DNA of 64,000 nucleotides, taken from positions 92,256,001 to 92,320,000 of the forward strand of contig OX597823.1 of assembly GCA_951406725.2 (NCBI GenBank), written 5' to 3'. Made by a program: the position numbers and the translations under genes. This DNA is from Octopus vulgaris (taxonomy: Eukaryota). Below are positions 1 to 58,940 of this stretch, one piece after another (the first letter of the stretch is position 1; each line of letters opens with the position of its first letter). The notes under the pieces are model-generated. The model ran no database searches, was not told the origin of the DNA, and saw only the letters and a list, made by a program, of their open reading frames with translations.

Positions 1-3000
1 TTTTAACAACTTTCCCTACCATTCAATAAACTCACTCGAGGGCAGCACTTATATCTCCACTCTAAATTTCCTCTTCAAGTAAAACTTGAAGAAGTCAATG
101 AAAGCTCTGCCAAAGAGGAATGTATCTGTCTTCATGCATTTCAGCCTTGCCCAGCAAATAGTCTCTTTCGCCACAGCCACCAGGCAAAGGAAACTGCCTT
201 GCCATCCCGATAGAAAGAAGGTGCCGATACGATCATCAGTACAGACTCGACCGACAGAGGGATCCATCCCACCCATGACAGCAGCTGTTCGACATAGCCA
301 CACAATTCAGCACTGACCGGACACTGAACGAGGGCGTGCAGAACGGTTTCATCGCTCTGCGTGCACCTCGGACAAGCCCGTCTGACAGCACATCCGTACC
401 TGTAGGATTTATCTCAAACAGGTAAGCGTCCCGCGGTAGCATTTCCAGGCCAAGATCTGGAAATTGTACATGATAGTTCCCAACCGGAAAGTCTTCCAGT
501 ACAGACTAGCCAGTTCATTCTCGTCAGTGCCCAGAGTTTTTCCGAGAATGTCGTCACACTTACCTGCCACTAATCCCCTAAAGCGGAGTACCCACCGATC
601 CCATTGCCCGACTGGTACAGGGCTGTGAGCGCCTGACGACATTCAAGGTGCCAGGCGCTTAGTCTCGATCTTTTCTTCACCCAGGATTGCAGCTCCGTCA
701 AGGAGACTAGTTGCGGAAAGACGAGCCTCAGAAACGGGGTCCACACACCCTCACCGTCCAGAAATCGTTGCGGGTGGCGTAACGTAATGGCGTGTCTGCG
801 CATTAGGTGCCACAGCATACCTACCCCGCCACTCACAGGATGCTGGTTACGAATTGGCCGCCTGATTATTGGAACGCATCCTTCTACAATTTAAAGGAGG
901 CGCTCCGACTTGGTCAAACGGTAACCGGGGCAAAGCACGACGGTAAGGCGATAAATGATAACTGAGGCGATGGAAGCATTCACCACATTAGTCCGATCTT
1001 TAGGCGACAGTTTCCTTTCAGCTCATTTCTGGGTAAGACTAGCCACCCTGGTCGCACCTCGTCCTATTTTTTTATCAACCTAGGGGTCGGTAGCAAACCA
1101 GATCCCGAGAAGTTTATCTGGTCCGTCGGTCCAGCGTCATCCGGTGGCATCGTCCTGCCTCTCCAGGAGCCCAACCACAAATCCACCGCTTTGTCGGCGT
1201 TGATTTTAGCCCCTACAACAGTCTCATTTTCCTTTAGGATTTTGCTGACCGTCCCCACTTGGGAGGTGCCCGACACCATGATGGTGGCGTCATCCGCGTA
1301 TGCCCACACCACTCTTCCATGTCCCTGTTCGAAAGGAGGACCCTCAATTGTTCCTACTTACACAGCTTCCGCTCGCCTGACAATACATACAGAAGAGGCG
1401 ACAGCGGGCAGCACTGACAGACCGAGCATGCGCTGCCAAACGGCTCCGTTAGGTGGCCGTCTTCTTTCACCACCGAACAGGTGTCACTGTGCATTGCAGC
1501 GACCCAGCCTCTGAAAACGTGTCCGAAACCGTCTGCTGTCGGGACGGCTTCCAAGTAGAGATGGTCGATCCTATCGAATGCTTTTGATTGATCCAAATTG
1601 ATTAGAGCACCCCCGAAGCCAGCTTTGGTCCCAGCCCTCTCTATGATATATCGCATAAGGTGAAGGTTGCTGTGGATAGACCTGTTCTAGACTGCACACG
1701 TTTGCGCTTCTCCGACCAGGCTACCGACGACAAACGCCAGCCTTTTCGTTAAAACCTTGGCCAAAATCTCAAACTCTGTCTTTAGCAGAGTTATGGGCAA
1801 AACATTTTCTAGTACGTCCCTATTGTCGGCGTATGCCTCCGCAGTGTCACCACACCTCTGCCAACAGCACTAGGAATTCTCCCGTTCTGCTGCCAGTTGC
1901 GGTAAACGTTTGCCAAGAGTTTGCCAATCAAATCTTGCATGAATACATAGAATATCGAGTAAACCGTCCAAACCGGGCAATCTGGGACTTGTTTGAGCGC
2001 ATGTGCGGTAGTTCTGACAACGCAACCTTCGTGTTTCGCTTTGAGGAAATTGTCAAGGGTCATTCTAACCTCTATCACAACGGTCGGAATGCCCTTTTTT
2101 AATCTCCTCTTTTAATTTGCTAACTAGTCTACTCTCTAATTTATTTCTATTGCGTAATCTTTGCTAAATGCCATCGATTCTGCTCTAATCGCCCTCTCCA
2201 GGGTAGCCCACCACCGGTTATTGACGATTGCCCCCATCAACTACCGCTTACCTAGTTCACTAACCCGGGCCATGTAATCTTTGTGTGCAGGAAAGGACTC
2301 GTCTAACTTCCAGCAACCGGGTCCCTGTGTACGGGTCCTATCTAGCTCAACTGTGCAGATCACAAACTTATGGTCTGTGTAACCGACCAACTTAAATTCA
2401 GAACAGCCTACACTATCCCTCTCCTCTGACCTAACAAAGATTCTATCTAGATACGATTTATATGATCAATTGCAGTTACTCGTGTTCATACTGGCACGTA
2501 AGAAAAATCCAGTCGGTACCTATCAGACAACTGGATGTCTCTGAGTAGGTTTTCGAGGCTTTTGCATCCCCTTCATCTGTGTACTAAACGCACACGGTCC
2601 TTCCGTGCGTCAAAAATCGCATTCCGGTCCTCTACTAGTACTAAACTGCGATACGTTCCCAGGAATATTCTAGACGCCTGAAGAATTCTGACCTTTCATC
2701 CCCTGTCGGGGCATAGACGAGCACCGGTCTAAAGGTACCACCTTCGCTGTCATTCACATCTAGGACCACCAACCTGCCACCCGGGTCCAAGAAGATTGCC
2801 TTTACTTCGAGATCTAAGGATTTGGGGAATAACACTGCTATCCCGCCAGCTGCTCCCGATAGACCGCATGCTAAGAATATATCATAGTCATGGAAAATGG
2901 TGGCTAGTGCTTGTGCACTAGAAATCCTTGTCTCGCTAATTGCAGCCACATGTACATCGAACGTCCTGAGATCGTTTAGCAAGTGACCTTGCTTCCAAGC

Positions 3001-3072
3001 TGAGCTCAGGCCACGAAGATCCACACATCCCACTCTGAAAACGATCTGAAAAACAAAATGGAAATTAGTCAC
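1..3072 (-). mobile_element. Degraded L1/Tx1-clade LINE ORF2 (APE endonuclease + reverse transcriptase), with many stops/frameshifts; runs off the window start
   Basis: Minus-strand peptides: APE (VAAISETR, GGIAVLF, GRLVVLDV, VYAPT, YLDRIFV, YTDH, GPGCWKLD); RT (LINLDQSKAFDRIDH, QCCPLSPLLY, AYADD, GAKINADK); post-RT RKLS-like segment. Confidence 0.9.
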
Positions 3073-3099: not shown

Positions 3100-4700
3100 G
3101 ACTCAGCTGCCTCGTCCAACTCATTACCATTAATGAAGGGCCTTCCTAAATTCCAGCTTTAACCTAAGAGATCCAAAGTCTTTTTGGTTCTAGGAATGTT
3201 TGTATCAGTTTTATCAGCTGTCTGTCATGGGGTGCTTTCGACAGAAGTTTGTCGAACCTTACTCGTTTTGTATCAGCTTGCTGTTGCTCTTGCGAACGAC
3301 TATGATGTCGATGATGCATTCGGATTCTCTAGTAAGTTGTACGAGTTATTCTTGTGACTGTTGTTTCTCTTCGTGTATTTGATTCTGTTTTTGGTGATTT
3401 TTGTAGTTGTGGCCATGGTTGAATGAGTGTGCATTGCTTTTGTTGTTGGGTTTTGGATGGATGTGTCGGTGCTGTTGTTAGTGTAGCCTATGGATCACGT
3501 GAATTTTCCTCGTCCTGTCTTTTCACTTTCAGCTTAGGACCGCTTTTTCTTGAACTATTTTCCCGCTTTTCCCTAACACCAATCTTTCTTGAAGCATTCA
3601 ATTGCTCCTTGTCGCATGAAAAGGCTTCTGAACCGCCAATGTTGGCATCACTCGGTGTATCTGTGTCACCCGTCTTTAGGGATGGTCCTATGCTTATGTC
3701 ACTTCTGTGATGTAAGCATAGGACCATTCTAACCTCTACTCCAAGTTATTCTTCCTTGATCTTCCGGCCCCTTGGAATTCCTTCCCAGGATGTTTCTCTT
3801 CAGCTCACTTGCCACAATTCAAATGGAAATTCAGTTACATTAACTTCCTGAATCATGAAGTGCAAACATAAAACTCGAGTCTTCGAGAGACTTCTCCTTT
3901 GATTTCAATCTACCTGTTGTAGCGCTCCAGACACTTTGTGATGGCCCCATTGAATTCCCCCAAGTTGTAGGTATCTGGGTTCTATGTCACAGCCTCCGTC
4001 GCTTTCTCGTTCAGCTTGGAGAACAATCACAGCTCACAGGGACTTTATGGTTGGGAGTAGGTTGAGGTGGTGTTTTGATGCCTGTATCTGTCAAGTAGTT
4101 TGTTACCAAAATGGAATTTTGAAATGAAATTTTGGCTTGGTTTGGGTGCACCGGACTTTTGCGACGAAATCTATTCCTGAACTATCTAAAAACTTCCACA
4201 AAATTTCTTTGTTGAGTGTCTGGCGAGAGGAAACCCAATGGATGTAGGTGATGTCCTTGATATCGACAAAGAATATCACCATTAACTTCTCGTTCGATTT
4301 GCTTTGCCTTGCTTCTTGTGCCAGCGAAAAACAAATGCATGACTATACCGAAAGAGTGAGATATAGCCAATGGTCAAATGTCCTTTGGGTCACCTCTTCT
4401 CCTTCAACTTTCTAACACCCTCCTTAGAACCCTTTCTGGTCCTAATACGGCTAAGCAATACCCACAGTAATTGCCTTGTTCTTTTTTCTACAAGGGTGTT
4501 AGTTATTCTAGCCACAATAAAATGGTGACACTGGATGGTCACATCCGACAGGATCTGGAGCATTTCATAAGTTTTGTAGCCTTTTATCCCAGTTTAACAA
4601 AACTTTATCGCATAACGGGCTTCTAAATAGCTTCCCCGTTCGACTGTTACCGCAAGCAGTCGGCTGTGATGATCAGTCTTTAGTAAGGAGTGTTCAAAGT
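3100..4700 (-). mobile_element. Probable decayed ORF1/5' region of the same Tx1-like LINE
   Basis: Lies directly upstream of the APE domain on the same strand; basic low-complexity peptide (3488..3727) and a decayed C..G.....H knuckle-like segment near 3780-3830. Confidence 0.45.
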
Positions 4701-7333: not shown

Positions 7334-7929
7334 GTCTCATAATAAAGCTACAAATTCCTATATTTTGGTTGGTCATTTAATTATCAAACTTGTGGGGATT
7401 GAGTAAATGAATGAAAATATATTTCTTCAGCTACATGAGGAATAAACATTTAACACAAAATCTTATTATCGCTCATACAGAGGAAGTGCGTTGACTTTTA
7501 GAGATAGCAACAGCAATGATTGCTTACTACGTGAGAGATACTGCTTTGTGTTTACAGCAAGCTATTGGCACGGCAACCTCTAGTCGGGCACCAACAGAAC
7601 TGGAAACAATCCTGTTATATTCGTGGTGACGGACGTTCCTGTCATCTATATGAAACATCTGTCGCAGCTGACTTCTCGAGTTGTCTTGCTGTCAAAAATG
7701 TGCAGCCAACGGCTTTTATACGGGACCGGAAGTAAAATTCTAGAATGTGCGTGAAAATGTCAACGCTGATTGGTTGGTTAATAGACCAACCATGTAAAAC
7801 AGTAATAGTTAGCTGAATAGTCCTATGGAACTGAGAATGGAGAATGAAGTAAACGGTAAATCAAAGCTATGCATATGTATATGATGCAATGTGGCAGGTG
7901 ATTTTCATTAGACATTCAATCGCACCTCG

Positions 7930-8770
7930 TACAAACATCTATAAAATAGGAATTTTGCTAGAACTGACAGTGCCATGGGAAGAGAACATCAGCAATGCAG
8001 AGGAACGGAAGGAGAAGAGGTACGAAAAACTAATCGAAGAGTGCAGAGAACAGGGATGGAATGTCGAGTATTACTACTTGGCAGTGGGGGCTAGGGGCTT
8101 CATTGAAAGAAAAATGACAAACTTATTCAAAAGAAGATTTGTTTTTTTCTAGCTCGGAGCTGCGAAAACTAATAAGGATAGTACAGGAGGCGGTCGAAAA
8201 CGCCAGCATTTATTAATGGCTGAAGTGGGAAGACCGAAAATGGCTTGAAAGTCATATCATGCCGGCGGAAAATAATATCACTAGATGAGACAAGCTGACA
8301 TTGAATTAGCTTCGCTGACTGACAGGTGAGGACCGGTTAGAGAATGCGTGGGCTAAGACTACGCGCTTTCATTGGTCAGTTAAAGTTGAGACAGTGTCAC
8401 GTGACAACTTGCTGGGGCTGCCTGCTGAAGCCTTGCGGCAGGTATTTGAAGAGAAAAAATTGACAAGTCAGTCATTCACCGGCTGACATTCGCTGACGAT
8501 ACATCGAAGAGGCCAGGGAACAGAAGAAAGAATAAGGAAGACATGCACCCAACACCAGAGCTGAAGACACCTCCGAAAGGAGGGGGGACGTCAAAACGGT
8601 AGAGGAGTAGGGGCCGAAACCGGACGTGGCTTCACCTGATGATGTCTTGAGCTAACTGGATCCTATAAAGGAGCTGTTGTGGTAGCAGACCACGAAACAC
8701 GGTTGAAATTGTCGCGTATCCACAGATTCAGCTTCCATTCCCCGCTATAGATCCCGAAAACAAGAAATAA
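7930..8770 (+). mobile_element. 5'-truncated HERO-like RLE non-LTR retrotransposon (endonuclease C-terminus + 3' UTR)
   Basis: ELTVPWEE..AEERKEKRYEKL..C..QGW....AVGARGF, followed after a frameshift by EAVENAS..WLKW..W, typical of HERO-clade C-termini. Confidence 0.75.
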
Positions 8771-9069
8771 GTCTGTATCGTAATAGTAACAGAAGACATT
8801 TGTCAATGTTACTGATGTAAGAGACCAATAATCTGCTGTTCATGACTCGAAATGTTGCGCTTCTTGTCTCGAGCTATATGTCTTTTCCAATTACAGTCAA
8901 AAATCACACAAGCTGCTCGGTAGACCCCTACATTTTGTAGATATTTGTACGAGGTGCGATTGAATGTCTAATGAAAATCACCTGCCACATTGCATCATAT
9001 ACGTATGCATAGCTTTGATTTACCGTTTACTTCATCTTCACCGTTTTGATATTGATGCGGCTCATTGTA

Positions 9070-9323
9070 AAATGATGATGACGACGACGGACGACGACGA
9101 TGACGACAACGATGATGATGATGATAATGATGATGAAGATGATGACGACGATGATAATAATAATAATAATTATAATAAAAGAATAATAATGAAAATGATA
9201 ATAATAATAATAATAATAATAGTAATAATGATATTAATAATGATAATAATGATAATAATGATAGTGATAATGATAGTGATAATGATAATAATAATCATAA
9301 TAATGATAATGGTAATAATAATG

Positions 9324-9417
<94 letters not shown>
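9070..9417. repeat. Compound (GAT/GAC)n-(AAT)n microsatellite
   Basis: Directly visible; it explains the poly-D/N/I N-terminus of ORF 8964..10235. Confidence 0.97.
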
Positions 9418-11814
<2,397 letters not shown>

Positions 11815-19397: not shown

Positions 19398-19603
19398 ACC
19401 GCGTGTGTACCGTTGGCGATTTTTTTCCCTCTGTCTTCCCTTCTTTGGATCATTCCTTTTCCTATGTTTCTGACGAAGAGCTCCGCTCGAAACGTTAAAC
19501 CCTCTTTCTTTCATTCTTTCCTAAGCGTCCAATAACACTATACTTGTTCCACGTCCTCGCGTTGTTGTGTTTTCTCTTTGTGTTTTCATGTTTGGATTAA
19601 CTA
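19398..19603 (+). mobile_element. Penelope pseudo-LTR-like short element carrying a hammerhead ribozyme
   Basis: Contains the HHR below; a homologous copy lies on the minus strand at 57600-57840; sits between (TA)n runs. Confidence 0.7.
19466..19500 (+). ncRNA. Minimal type I hammerhead ribozyme
   Basis: Stem I GTTT/AAAC, core CTGACGA, stem II GAGC-TCC-GCTC, GAAA, palindromic stem III ACGT, GUU cleavage triplet. Confidence 0.75.
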
Positions 19604-35802: not shown

Positions 35803-36368
35803 CGAGGGTGAGTCAAAAAGTAATGCCATTTTCTTTAGGGCAGGTATAATTACCAACACAGGAACATGTATCATACATCAAAACGAAGCTGGTAATCTGT
35901 GGATCACATCCCTACTTCTCAACATAGTCACCGTTTCTCTCAATAGCAATATTCCACCTTCGAATGAGGGCATGTATCCCTGCCCTGTAAAATTTCTGTT
36001 CCCTATTCTTTGAGCCACTTCTTCACTACAGTTTTCACTTCCTCATCACTGGAATAATGTTTGCCTCTCAAACCCTCTTTCATGGGGCCGAAAAGATGAT
36101 ACTCCACTGACGATGATAGTCCAGTGACGAGGAAGTGAAAACTGTAATGAAGAAGTGGCTCAAAGAACAGTAAAAAATACTTTACGGGGCAGGGATACAT
36201 GCTCTCATTCAAAGGTGGAGCATTACTATTGAGAGAAACGGTGACTATGTTGAGGAGTAGGGATGGGATCTACAGAAGAACAGCTTCATTTTGATGTATG
36301 ATGCATGTTCCTGTGGGGATAATTATACCTAACCTAAACAAAATGGCATTACTTTTTGACTCACCCTT
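35803..36368. mobile_element. Mariner-derived palindromic MITE
   Basis: TIR GAGGGTGAGTCAAAAAGTAATGCCATTT at both ends, TA flanks; each arm carries a mariner C-terminus (YHLFGPMKEGLRGKHYSSDEEVK..KWLKE...GDYVE). Confidence 0.88.
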
Positions 36369-37697: not shown

Positions 37698-39078
<1,381 letters not shown>

Positions 39079-39172: not shown

Positions 39173-39335
<163 letters not shown>

Positions 39336-39480
39336 GAAATAGAAAGATGAATAATCTTGTTGCAGATTAATCAAAAGTTTAACCGATACCTTGGTAGCAA
39401 AAATCACAGCAGAAGACAGCACGGTTGGAGGTACAACCATATGGTGTTGCAACCATGCGTTGGTGCGGATAATTGAATTT

Positions 39481-40199
39481 TAATATTATTAGTGAATTGA
39501 AGAAATGGAGTTGAACGAAGATTGAACAGAAATCGTTTTATTGCATTCTACACGTGTTTCGAAAGCCACAATTTACCAAATTCCGATTGAATAAGGAGAC
39601 CATATTGTGTCTTTCTCTTTAGGAAGAAATAGGAAATCCGTTGGAAAAAACAAAAACAGAACAGAGGCGGAGCAAAACAAATCGAACGAGGCTCCTAAGA
39701 GCCCATGGCCAAACTGTTTATCAATGTATGTTGAAAACGGGTGGTGGGTGCGTTGAAGATTTTAACAGGTCAGGCAGCGGTCATTCCGGTGGGTGAGAGC
39801 ACGGGGTGCTTAGATGTTCTTTGTGACCGAGACTAAAGAACTTTAGTCTCGGTCACAAAGAACATCTAAGCACCCCGTGCTCTCACCCACCGGAATGACC
39901 GCTGCCTGACCTGTTAAAATCTTCAACGCACCCACCACCCGTTTTCAACATACATTGATAAACAGTTTGGCCATGGGCTCTTAGGAGCCTCGTTCGATTT
40001 GTTTTGCTCCGCCTCTGTTCTGTTTTTGTTCTTTCCAACGGATTTCCTATTTCTTCCTGAAGAGAAAGACACAATATGGTCTCCTTATTCAATCGGAATT
40101 TGGTAAATTGTGGCTTTTCGAAACACGTGTAGAATGCAATAAAACGATTTCTGTTCAATCTTCGTTCAACTCCATTTCTTCAATTCACTAATAATATTA
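39481..40199. repeat. Near-perfect DNA palindrome (about 358-bp arms, 2-nt spacer)
   Basis: Centre GACTAAAG-AA-CTTTAGTC at 39831-39848; arms are reverse-complementary out to TAATATTATTAGTG / CACTAATAATATTA, with three differences seen by eye. Confidence 0.97.
40054..40134 (+). ncRNA. Type I hammerhead ribozyme with long stem II and palindromic stem III
   Basis: TTC-CTGAAGA-GAAAGACACAAT...ATTGTGGCTTTTC-GAAACACGTGTA-GAA; GUA cleavage site; AATAAA just downstream. Confidence 0.75.
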
Positions 40200-42590: not shown

Positions 42591-42619
42591 ATGATAATTA
42601 AATATATATATATATATAT

Positions 42620-43047
42620 ATAGCAGTCAAGAATGCTTATTTCTATCAAAGTGGGACTCCGGGCATGGCAAAATTTTTGGAGGGAAGATTTACGAATTCA
42701 AACGTCTATGTAGGTTTAGCTTTTGCTCACTTTCTTCAAATATTTTGATGTCGCATGGTCAGAAGGTTTGAGGTACGTAGCATTTGATAAATCTATGATA
42801 AATCTATTTCAATGGAAAGCTGTGCTGAAGAAGGATGTGAAATATATATGCAATGTATATGAAATATATATCAAAAATATATATGAAATATATATTCAAT
42901 ATGTTTATAATCCAGAAACATGATGTTCACAGATAACCACCAGACTTCGTCTTCGATATCTATTCCTTCTCTTTTGCATATGTGAATTACAGGGTTTGTC
43001 GTGCCCGGAGTCCCACTTTGATAGAAATAAGCATTCTTGACTGCTAT
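42620..43047. repeat. Segment bounded by 53-bp inverted repeats
   Basis: ATAGCAGTCAAGAATGCTTATTTCTATCAAAGTGGGACTCCGGGCA.. at 42620 and its reverse complement at 42995-43047. Confidence 0.85.
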
Positions 43048-43236
43048 TTCTATTTTTTCGGTATGCGGTCAAGCAACCTGTTGCCTGTCCCTTTTTCTTA
43101 TATACAATATATATACTGAACTTTACAGAAGTTCCTGCCGGTAATCGGCTATATTTACATACCGAATTCTACCAGTAAATAATTGTGGTTTCTTTAAAAA
43201 CCTTTATAGAAATTATTTACTCTTATTATTATATTA

Positions 43237-48625: not shown

Positions 48626-48659
<34 letters not shown>

Positions 48660-49136
48660 GGTATGTAGAAAAATACATCATGGACAAGAACGTATAACTC
48701 TTAGAAAACGATACAATAAACACGGACAGGACATTCGAAACCCTCCGTCTTCAGTCAAGAACCGGATCATCGTAGTAATTTCGGCTGATTAATCTTGAGA
48801 TTACTAGATCACGGCCAGCCCTCCAAGAAAAACTAAGCAACAAGCATTAGAAAAACTAAGCTGGAAGCGTAGATTTCCTGGAAGAAAGATCGAATGCATA
48901 CGAACACCAGGACAGCAAAAGGGACAGATATAAAAAAAACAAAAAAACAATAATGGAATACAGAAACATGAAATACAGAAGCATTAACGGTGAAAACGAC
49001 AAGTGTCTTACGACTGATAACAAGCAAACAATTTTTTTTTCTCTGGCGCATTGGAAGGAGCCTTTATAGCGGCGGACGAAAAACAACGATGTTAACGTGA
49101 CGATGGTCAGAAGCTGAAAGGCAGATTTCAATATTT

Positions 49137-49266
49137 ATTTATTTTATAGAAGGAGCTTCTACAGGACTAGAACTGTTTCATTCAAAAGAAATCATCAGGA
49201 AGCTTCCTGATGATTTCTTTTGAATGAAACAGTTCTAGTCCTGTAAACTCCTTCTATAAAATAAAT
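49137..49266. repeat. About 130-bp palindrome with no spacer
   Basis: Centre ATCATCAGGAAG|CTTCCTGATGAT; arms match except for a small deletion in the right arm. Confidence 0.95.
49154..49204 (-). ncRNA. Type I hammerhead ribozyme
   Basis: Minus strand AGCTTC-CTGATGA-TTTCTTTTGAAT-GAA-ACAG-TTCTAGTC-CTGT-A-GAAGCT: 6-bp stem I, 4-bp stem III, GUA site. Confidence 0.8.
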
Positions 49267-49331
49267 TAATTTACTCTGCTATGTATTGAGTACCTTATTT
49301 ACTGTGGTTAACCCCGACTCAACCCGGTACC

Positions 49332-49386
<55 letters not shown>

Positions 49387-51962: not shown

Positions 51963-53001
51963 TCACCGTTGCTAGTACCACCACCACCACCACCACCACC
52001 ACCACCACCACCGCCGCCGCCGCCACCACCACCACCACCACCACCACCACCACAACCACCATCACGACCACAACCATTATAACAACCTCACCCTAATTAT
52101 CGCCATCACAACCACCACCACCACAGTACCACCATCACCAACGCCACTGACCTCACTACCGCCACCACCGTCACCACTGCAAGCACCATCACCACCGCCA
52201 CCACCACAACCACCACTCAATCATCACCACCTCTATCGCCTCCACTCTATTACCATCACTAATACTAACAGCGGAAAAGCTATCCTGAGAACCGAAACCA
52301 CAACCCTCCCCACCACTGCCTCTTGTACTCCTTCCAATCACCAACAACCAAGGAATGGATCATAAAGTGGTCACTTTAAGATGCTAGAAATAACAGCAAA
52401 ATATTCGTCAAGTGATACTGCTTTTTTTACAAAGTGCAATACGATTTGAATATCATCCCAGGAATATTGTGATATGGTAAAAGACGGGATGGCCATGAAT
52501 GGGCTAGTTTTGATCATAGGTCTGCTCGACCACTTGGTGCAATAGCAACCAGTAACACAAATATCCCTGATATTACAAACTGCAATACCTTTATCTTCAC
52601 CACCCAAAATGCTCTGCATTCCCATCAGAAAATACTTCGATGCAGCTATAACAGCTTGTATTCGATTGTCAGATATATTCGTTCGTTCTGTTCTTTACAT
52701 GGCGCCTTATTCGTCATATGTCTGAAACCAGGTCGGATTTATTTAAATTTCTAAAACAATAAATAAAAATCATAGAGGAAGAATTAAACTAGGAAGATCC
52801 ATGAATTAACGATTAAAGCATTTTGTGTGTCAATTCAAATAAGACTGAAAAGGACTGAAATAAATGGAAAAGAAAAAGATTAAGAGTGAGATAGAAAGAG
52901 AGAAAAGAAAACGAACGAATTATATGACACCCCAATAAAATTCCGATTTCATCACAGTGATTACTATCGCGATAGTAATCACTGTGAAAATAATTCAATG
53001 T

Positions 53002-57840: not shown

Positions 57841-58285
57841 TGGGTGAAGGAAAAGTTCTTTCTAAGACAGGAGAGTGTAAGAGAAAGAGATATGTGGGTG
57901 TGCGCGCGTCTGTGTGTGTGTGTGTGTGTGCGTGTGTATGTGTGAGTGGTATTTGTGTGGTTTGGCTGTTTATATGTGTCTGTGTGTTGAATAAGAATTC
58001 ACTGCTCATATATGAATTGTTATCGTTAATATCAGTATTATTACCCTCATAATAAACAACCGTTATACTTCTTAGGGTCATTATTAATCTCCCTTTATCC
58101 TGAACATTATCGTCATAGCAGGGACTTCACACTGATTTTGATGCTTGAGAACGATAAGGGACTCTCCCTAAAATAACTGTAACTGGTTGTTGAAACTACA
58201 TATTCCTAGATTATTAACATTTGACGGATTTTTGTCCTCATCTTGTTTGTTGTTAACACAGCGTTTCGGCTGATTTACCCTCCGT

Positions 58286-58769: not shown

Positions 58770-58940
58770 CATCCAAAAATATTTTAGGAATGAGACCCCA
58801 GGTTTGAAATTTCCCCAAGCCACCTGATGAAGGCTGGAGGGTATACCAGCTGAAACGTTGTGTTAAAAACAAACAAGATGAGGACAAATATCCGTCAAAT
58901 GTAAATAAGGTAAATAATTCCTCATCTCTTAAATATAGCA
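58770..58940 (+). mobile_element. Penelope pseudo-LTR-like segment; inverted partial copy at 58218-58284
   Basis: GGAGGGTATACCAGCTGAAACGTTGTGTTAAAAACAAACAAGATGAGGACAAATATCCGTCAAATGT is the reverse complement of 58218-58284. Confidence 0.7.
58821..58862 (+). ncRNA. Minimal type I hammerhead ribozyme
   Basis: CAC-CTGATGA-A-GGCTGG..CCAGCT-GAAACGTT-GTG; stem I CAC/GTG, palindromic stem III ACGT. Confidence 0.72.

Follow-up and report, generated by a model that had tools for sequence, protein, structure and literature searches.

A palindrome at positions 49133–49270 of the 64,000-nucleotide stretch of Octopus vulgaris DNA analysed here (the window) belongs to a many-copy repeat family whose unit combines a hammerhead ribozyme motif with an AT-rich end and, on one side only, a tail of 64 bases. 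The palindrome is probably a dead, 5′-truncated, head-to-head insertion of the terminal repeat (pLTR) of a Penelope-like retrotransposon (PLE), and its family is likely a new family-level example of an insertion pattern that has already been described. The structural marks of such insertions are present, namely an inverted 5′-truncated copy, a palindrome at the junction, a one-sided tail and a hammerhead in the terminal repeat. The family was not described in the literature searched for cephalopod PLE hammerheads and PLE snap-back insertion; Repbase, Dfam and supplementary files lay outside that search, and the family may be catalogued there.

Palindrome geometry and the hammerhead motif

The palindrome is spacer-less and centred on AAGCTT, as a first-pass annotation made from the letters alone had proposed, and its centre lies between 49202 and 49203 (AAG/CTT). 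It is perfect over 43 + 43 bases (49160–49245), and the arms can be aligned outward to 49133 and 49270 with 94 % identity over 140 bases. The element is larger than the 49137–49266 first assigned to it and has a one-sided extension of 64 bases, to 49334. By arm alignment, arm 1 (49133–49202, minus strand) is a 5′-truncated repeat end without a tail, with its outer edge at 49131–49133 in ambiguous AT, and arm 2 (49203–49270, plus strand) is the same repeat end, with the core and stems II and III intact. Folded as RNA, the palindrome reaches −92 to −96 kcal/mol (z about −18 to −21), a value equalled by none of 200 shuffled sequences. Self-comparison revealed no second copy elsewhere in the 64-kb window, and exact 29-base matches were absent from both the viral and the prokaryote contigs.

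Type I hammerheads are defined by a core of CUGANGA, GAAA and UH in type I order together with stems I to III, and the minus arm contains this core and these stems in that order, as an intact motif at 49151–49208 (minus strand) located by descriptor match and predicted fold. Stem I (AGCUUC/GAAGCU, 49204–49199 paired with 49159–49154) consists of 6 bp followed by a bulged A and 3 bp more, reaching across the fold centre. The core sequences are CUGAUGA (49198–49192) and GAAA (49179–49176), stem II (UUC/GAA) has 3 bp with a 4-base loop and a U.U at its base, and stem III (ACAG/CUGU) has 4 bp with an 8-base loop. The cleavage triplet is GUA, with the predicted cut between 49160 and 49159. The stems, core and GUA of the complete minus-strand ribozyme are as the annotation had described them; the U.U at position 10.1–11.1 and the longer stem I had been overlooked. 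The minus arm is the sole strict type I descriptor match on either strand of the whole 64 kb, and none of 300 block-wise dinucleotide-shuffled windows produced a match as strong (five produced a weaker one).

The U.U at position 10.1–11.1 departs from the usual G-C. The same context is found in 4 of the 92 distinct microbial motif matches listed, three of which fold completely, and the axolotl hammerhead HHR_Amex2, with U.U at the base of stem II, cleaves according to the available portion of Cervera and De la Pena (2020, PMC7229834). Since the U.U is tolerated in HHR_Amex2 and seen in microbial motifs, G10.1-C11.1 is a common feature of hammerheads and not a strict one.

The hammerhead fold of the minus arm was predicted at −11.3 kcal/mol, 0.3 above the minimum free energy of −11.6. 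Predicted pair probabilities are 0.5–1.0 for stem I, 0.13–0.18 for stem II and 0.30–0.35 for stem III; in the predicted ensemble stem I is firm and stems II and III are weak. A 202-base minus transcript has a predicted energy of −107.1 kcal/mol when free to fold, against −41.6 with the hammerhead enforced, and in a read-through transcript of this copy the long hairpin is predicted to hide the ribozyme. Common substitutions (at least 5 %) listed within 49133–49335 are only two, at 49187 (loop II) and 49171 (loop III), with none in the core or stems. The common variant at 49171 extends the loop III palindrome from 4 to 6 bases and would favour dimer formation; in the window's own form the stem III self-duplex has a predicted energy of −12.8 kcal/mol.

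In a scan of one arm with Rfam covariance models the best match was Hammerhead_3, at 13.7 bits (E 1.2) and under the gathering score of 48.5. No hammerhead was listed among the best 150 of 248 matches to the whole window or the 52 matches of a 241-base scan, and the matches listed from these two scans are hairpin and snoRNA look-alikes, all below gathering score. One candidate, SNORD102 (19.3 bits, gathering 47), was rejected as a chance match owing to the UGAUGA in common. Rfam scans score such palindromes as microRNA hairpins, which calls for caution in annotation.

The repeat family, its tail and its relatives

Part of 49131–49345 was found in 21 of the 24 public runs listed, which come from 13 studies. 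Contigs from four runs of four studies (X1, X2, X5 and X12) were aligned to 48657–49335 at 85 % likeness; including the left-flank repeat, the aligned contigs numbered 3312 (X1), 1064 (X2), 2605 (X5) and 314 (X12). None of the runs is listed as RNA; X12 may be an RNA run, and its contigs are given no weight as a sign of transcription. The tail occupies 49271–49334 on the plus strand, as defined by the joint 49133/49270 in all four runs; 15 contigs in X1 have loose ends before 49133, at this boundary. One X1 contig over 49221–49301 carries the two bases missing from arm 2 (see below) and continues into the tail. As intact-arm contigs run into 49271–49334, the family unit consists of an intact ribozyme, the AT-rich end and the 64-base extension, whose end is predicted to form a stem-loop with an A/C-rich loop (−10.5 kcal/mol). 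Other copies end at the AT-rich end and are followed by (TA)n, among the rows listed for X1, X5 and X12, and loose ends before 49131 occur, among the matches listed, in 16 contigs of X1, 25 of X5, 7 of X12 and none of X2. Given the tailed unit and the tail-less ends beside (TA)n, the present copy has one tailed and one tail-less arm.

The end of the tail touches an (AT)n microsatellite (49335–49385, from repeat analysis), which is likely the insertion target. On the left, arm 1 is preceded by a separate many-copy repeat (48657–49130) that lies outside the element, between (AT)n at 48629–48656 and arm 1, and ends at 49129/49130, beyond which its copies diverge in all four runs. The element probably inserted at the margin of an (AT)n tract that already contained the left-flank repeat. 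A target-site duplication is not readable against (AT)n; the AT-rich, microsatellite character of the target is present. The left-flank repeat itself has a core-like word, CUGAAGA, at 48754 (minus strand) without canonical GAAA or UH, and its contig depth is highest at 48749–48794.

The plus-strand twin of the ribozyme has a damaged 3′ stem I strand, as the annotation had recognised: by arm alignment two G are missing near 49245–49248 (GTAAACT, compared with GTAGAAGCT in the other arm), and the predicted fold of this arm, at −6.8 kcal/mol, is not a hammerhead. The missing G's are restored in most of the covering contigs, and most of the covering depth, in X1 and in the single covering contig of X2. 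In X5 the unrestored form has a depth of 32 at 49246–7, compared with bin depths of 10^5–10^6 nearby; summed contig depths are not copy numbers and serve only to contrast rare with common forms, and the preferential placing of intact contigs on arm 1 lowers the depth at 49245–7. The two-base loss is a rare form of the repeat. The damage to the plus arm is likely ordinary decay or drift and not design, and as the ribozyme occupies most of a 70-base arm, nearly any change strikes it.

The layout agrees with that of inverted insertions of EN+ PLEs made of a pLTR and a tail, which in the available portions of PMC3846280 and PMC8557442 are head-to-head and 5′-truncated, with a palindrome at the junction, a hammerhead in the repeat, an extension at one end and an AT-rich or (TA)n target. 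The accessible text of Craig (2021, PMC8557442) describes an inverted 5′-truncated copy, a tail of 30–40 bases that is frequently found at one end, pLTRs with hammerheads and a bias towards microsatellites, and that of Arkhipova (2013, PMC3846280) describes palindromes at the inverted junctions, interpreted as self-priming, and an 18-bp palindrome at the 5′ end of a pLTR. Compared with these insertions, the octopus copy has very short arms (about 70 and 132 bases) in which no coding frame was found, a tail of 64 bases instead of the 30–40 given in that text, and a junction palindrome that overlaps stem I and the core of the ribozyme. GIY-YIG domains were absent from the 137 of 266 low-complexity-filtered frames of the window that were scanned with Pfam, and the scanned frames include no reverse transcriptase (RT) or GIY-YIG frame linked to the palindrome, as is expected of a truncated end.

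The motif also shares with PLE hammerheads (PMC4209133; anole Poseidon PAc, PMC11167929), as characterised in excerpts of these papers, the type I order with a full core and the occurrence as dispersed, high-copy motifs and opposite-strand pairs. Excerpts of Cervera and De la Pena (2014, PMC4209133) place the opposite-strand pairs of Schistosoma 100–700 bp apart and report low in vitro activity for PLE hammerheads. Minimal animal PLE hammerheads, as described in the same excerpts, differ from the present motif, with its short 3-bp stem II bearing U.U and its long 4-bp stem III; further differences from PLE hammerheads are the 8-base, partly palindromic loop III, the 9-bp bulged stem I, and a ribozyme at which no start codon opens a long frame. 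The tail end and the start site of the anole PLE, in the portion of its description available, are both A/C-rich stem-loops, which is a resemblance only.

Non-LTR retrozymes such as HHR_Amex2 share other properties with the repeat, being non-coding and low in GC, with a type I motif and U.U at the base of stem II (PMC7229834, in the part available). The palindrome might be an inverted fragment of a non-autonomous retrozyme, a short tandem repeat with a type I hammerhead that spreads via circular RNA, inserted by PLE proteins. The complete-looking type I motif, stable stem III and U.U do resemble retrozyme hammerheads, the Pfam-scanned frames of the window link no coding frame to the palindrome, and retrozymes have been proposed, in the accessible text of a preprint (Li 2026), to be PLE derivatives. 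Against this, the arms are head-to-head and not tandem, there is no monomer repeat at the locus, head-to-tail monomers of 150–450 bases with a hammerhead were found neither at the locus nor among the contig joints listed, and the one-sided tail with head-to-head arms is a mark of PLEs. A retrozyme origin is thus considered improbable, and a PLE terminal repeat is preferred.

The fold centre and the route of inversion

The fold centre lies in a perfect, self-complementary palindrome of 14 bases (49196–49209) that shares bases with the 5′ strand of stem I and with C3-U4-G5 of the core. The 3′ strand of stem I pairs beyond the centre, and only 70 of 20000 random 5-base continuations pair equally well; in addition, each arm of one X5 contig (depth 14.3) contains the 14-mer, and 17 more letters separate the two. 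Because stem I pairs across the centre and this contig holds the 14-mer on both arms, the 14-mer is likely native to the parent element and not made by the inversion. Two X12 contigs that depart at 49204 into other letters count against this, and may be truncation junctions or represent a different upstream sequence. As DNA the 14-mer is predicted to pair weakly as a hairpin (−2.5 kcal/mol) and strongly as a self-duplex (−17.6 kcal/mol), and is likely a hot spot for annealing or fold-back.

Perfect spacer-less palindromes are a recognised type of artefact, and the palindrome data come from contigs and not from raw reads, so a fold-back chimera of assembly or library preparation has to be considered, together with a MITE-type DNA transposon. 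The same centre is bridged by X1 and X2 contigs with at least 31 letters on each side and 3–5 other letters, and is crossed by an X12 contig with 25 letters on one side. The X1 and X2 contigs show that the centre did not arise as an artefact of a single assembly and that it probably occurs more than once. The two arms are also not identical, one lacking two bases and their outer ends differing, and an X5 contig covers 49246–7 in the unrestored form. A MITE would not show the one-sided 64-base extension or several junction positions. Both an artefact and a MITE are therefore regarded as extremely unlikely, and a genuine retrotransposon insertion is the reading followed here.

The fold-back point had been placed at the 5′ edge of the ribozyme. 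The centre at 49202/49203 coincides with the 14-mer and not with the predicted cleavage site, and the fold point is not fixed: the aligned contigs contain 12 other antisense-to-sense junctions (10 among the 12 joints listed and 2 added; the remaining two listed joints are one tail continuation and one internal deletion). The second palindrome of the window, at 39.5 kb, has its fold point away from the edge of the ribozyme. The antisense arms of these alternative junctions extend from just after the predicted cut to past the 14-mer. Each is represented by one contig at 85 % likeness, with 20–29 letters on the shorter side where this is given, and subsequent deletion across a hairpin may account for some of them. 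Ends defined by ribozyme cleavage were considered and set aside: one of the 12 junctions begins at 49159, precisely where the predicted 3′ cleavage product would begin (X5, depth 7.5), and another at 49161, two bases off, and with a span of about 45–60 positions this is within chance, hence no claim of cleavage ends is made.

These junctions bear on the proposal of a dedicated snap-back element, with one live and one dead ribozyme and always folded at the 5′ edge of the ribozyme. The ribozyme is altered in one arm of both long hammerhead palindromes in the window, and the centre crossed in X1, X2 and X12 with 3–5 other letters would also suit such an element. The damaged form is nevertheless rare, contigs with the intact ribozyme and tail are common and occur in all four runs, a ribozyme filling most of a 70-base arm is easily hit, a read-through transcript would mask both ribozymes, and the arm differences at 39.5 kb look like drift. 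A design of one intact and one damaged ribozyme is not upheld, and a dedicated element of this kind is most unlikely.

Host DNA metabolism offers another source of inversion. Fold-back during replication or repair could plausibly be seeded by a native palindrome of short length, and a single copy could in principle have been made palindromic later by the host, at the 14-mer. Arm 1, however, ends at the tail-less end where many copies end beside (TA)n, the flanking host DNA is not duplicated, and the same layout is present in an unrelated family. There is accordingly very little probability that the palindrome arose by host replication or repair, and inversion during PLE insertion is preferred.

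In such an insertion, a PLE protein with RT and GIY-YIG domains, encoded elsewhere, would nick AT-rich DNA at the edge of (AT)n. Both nicked strands would then prime reverse transcription, one from the end of the tail and one from the tail-less start; two starts are proposed because the anole element has two start sites flanking the tail (Frangieh 2024). The two cDNAs would stop about 70 and 135 bases in and anneal via the self-complementary 14-mer, which would leave a centre without a spacer, and drift would afterwards remove two bases from arm 2. The ribozyme would be active in the parent RNA. The available text of Frangieh (2024, PMC11167929) describes a PLE protein that cuts and extends both strands of AT-rich DNA, starts at two tail-flanking sites in an A/C-rich stem-loop with a predicted dimer, and inserts in vitro with ribozyme cleavage dispensable.

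Annealing of two cDNAs at the 14-mer is judged slightly more probable than not, and snap-back at this 14-mer by one cDNA alone is a real possibility that falls somewhat short of an even chance. The two routes predict identical sequence and are not separable here, because at each of the two variable sites the majority base is present in both arms. Of the recurring snap-back mechanism suggested for these insertions, recurrent inversion remains plausible; it has already been described for PLEs (Arkhipova 2013; Craig 2021), and snap-back is one of two fitting mechanisms.

A more speculative idea, which we hold to be rather unlikely, is that the ribozyme-embedded 14-mer is a programmed annealing or self-priming site for the second strand, giving a recurrent palindromic mini-insertion of 200 bases. 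If true, the 14-mer would connect the formation of inverted insertions with the PLE hammerhead, a motif of unsettled role, and fold-back and two-cDNA models could be separated with the help of thousands of short copies. The route of head-to-head PLE insertion and the role of the hammerhead are open questions in the accessible text of Craig (2021) and Frangieh (2024). In a short, high-copy family whose centre overlaps the ribozyme, junctions can be mapped against both the 14-mer and the cleavage site, and variants between the arms of family copies could distinguish snap-back from two-cDNA annealing.

Other hammerhead-like loci and the remainder of the window

A second palindrome of 719 bases (within 39335–40199), with arms 98.9 % alike, lies between TA-rich tracts. 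At 40057 (plus strand) it has a relaxed type I hammerhead whose stem II is long and whose stem III is palindromic. Its centre is a short loop that lies well upstream of this ribozyme, and a 146-base extension is present only on its left side. Its arms differ at three internal places in 360 columns, including one core G and one indel at the end of stem II. The two palindromes had been taken for unrelated sequence families, which is borne out, as self-comparison gave no cross-match between them. They share their architecture: the arms stand head to head and carry a hammerhead motif, the end is AT-rich, and only one side is extended.

Two segments at 58211–58283 and 58824–58908 are inverted relative to each other, head to head, with 552 bases between them. 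A minimal hammerhead is present in the right copy (core at 58824, 6-bp stem II, GAAACGUU), and the left copy breaks off inside stem II; the pair is likely a third Penelope-type family. Another motif resembling a minimal hammerhead is present at 19470 on the plus strand (CUGACGA, 4-bp stem II, GAAACGUU).

A degenerate hammerhead motif was found at no fewer than 121 loci in metagenome contigs (L001–L121). No homologue of the palindrome was found among these at least 121 loci, the best blastn match having an E value of 0.003 over about 30 core bases. Most of the loci listed carry a type III-like hammerhead motif of microbes or phages, which is often followed closely by an apparent start codon. 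Among the matches listed, stem I is closed in 77 of 84 distinct G-C contexts and in three of four U.U contexts (L061, L069 and L088). The microbial type III-like motif is unrelated to the octopus palindrome.

The window is rich in repeats and microsatellites and contains remnants of LINE-type reverse transcriptases, which fits an animal genome. Pfam RT matches lie at 1.1–1.7 kb and 9.0–10.2 kb and zf-RVT matches at 0.1–0.4 and 10.7–11.6 kb, and these look LINE-like; broken frames of LINE-type retrotransposons with RVT_1, zf-RVT and endonuclease matches were seen at 8964–11607 and 144–3072. Inverted-repeat elements are present at 35805–36367, 7844–9035 and 42614–43053, and we take these to resemble MITE or Tc1/mariner remnants. 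Short isolated palindromes occur at 52952–52987 (36 bases, perfect), 38196–38230 (35 bases) and 3682–3727 (46 bases).
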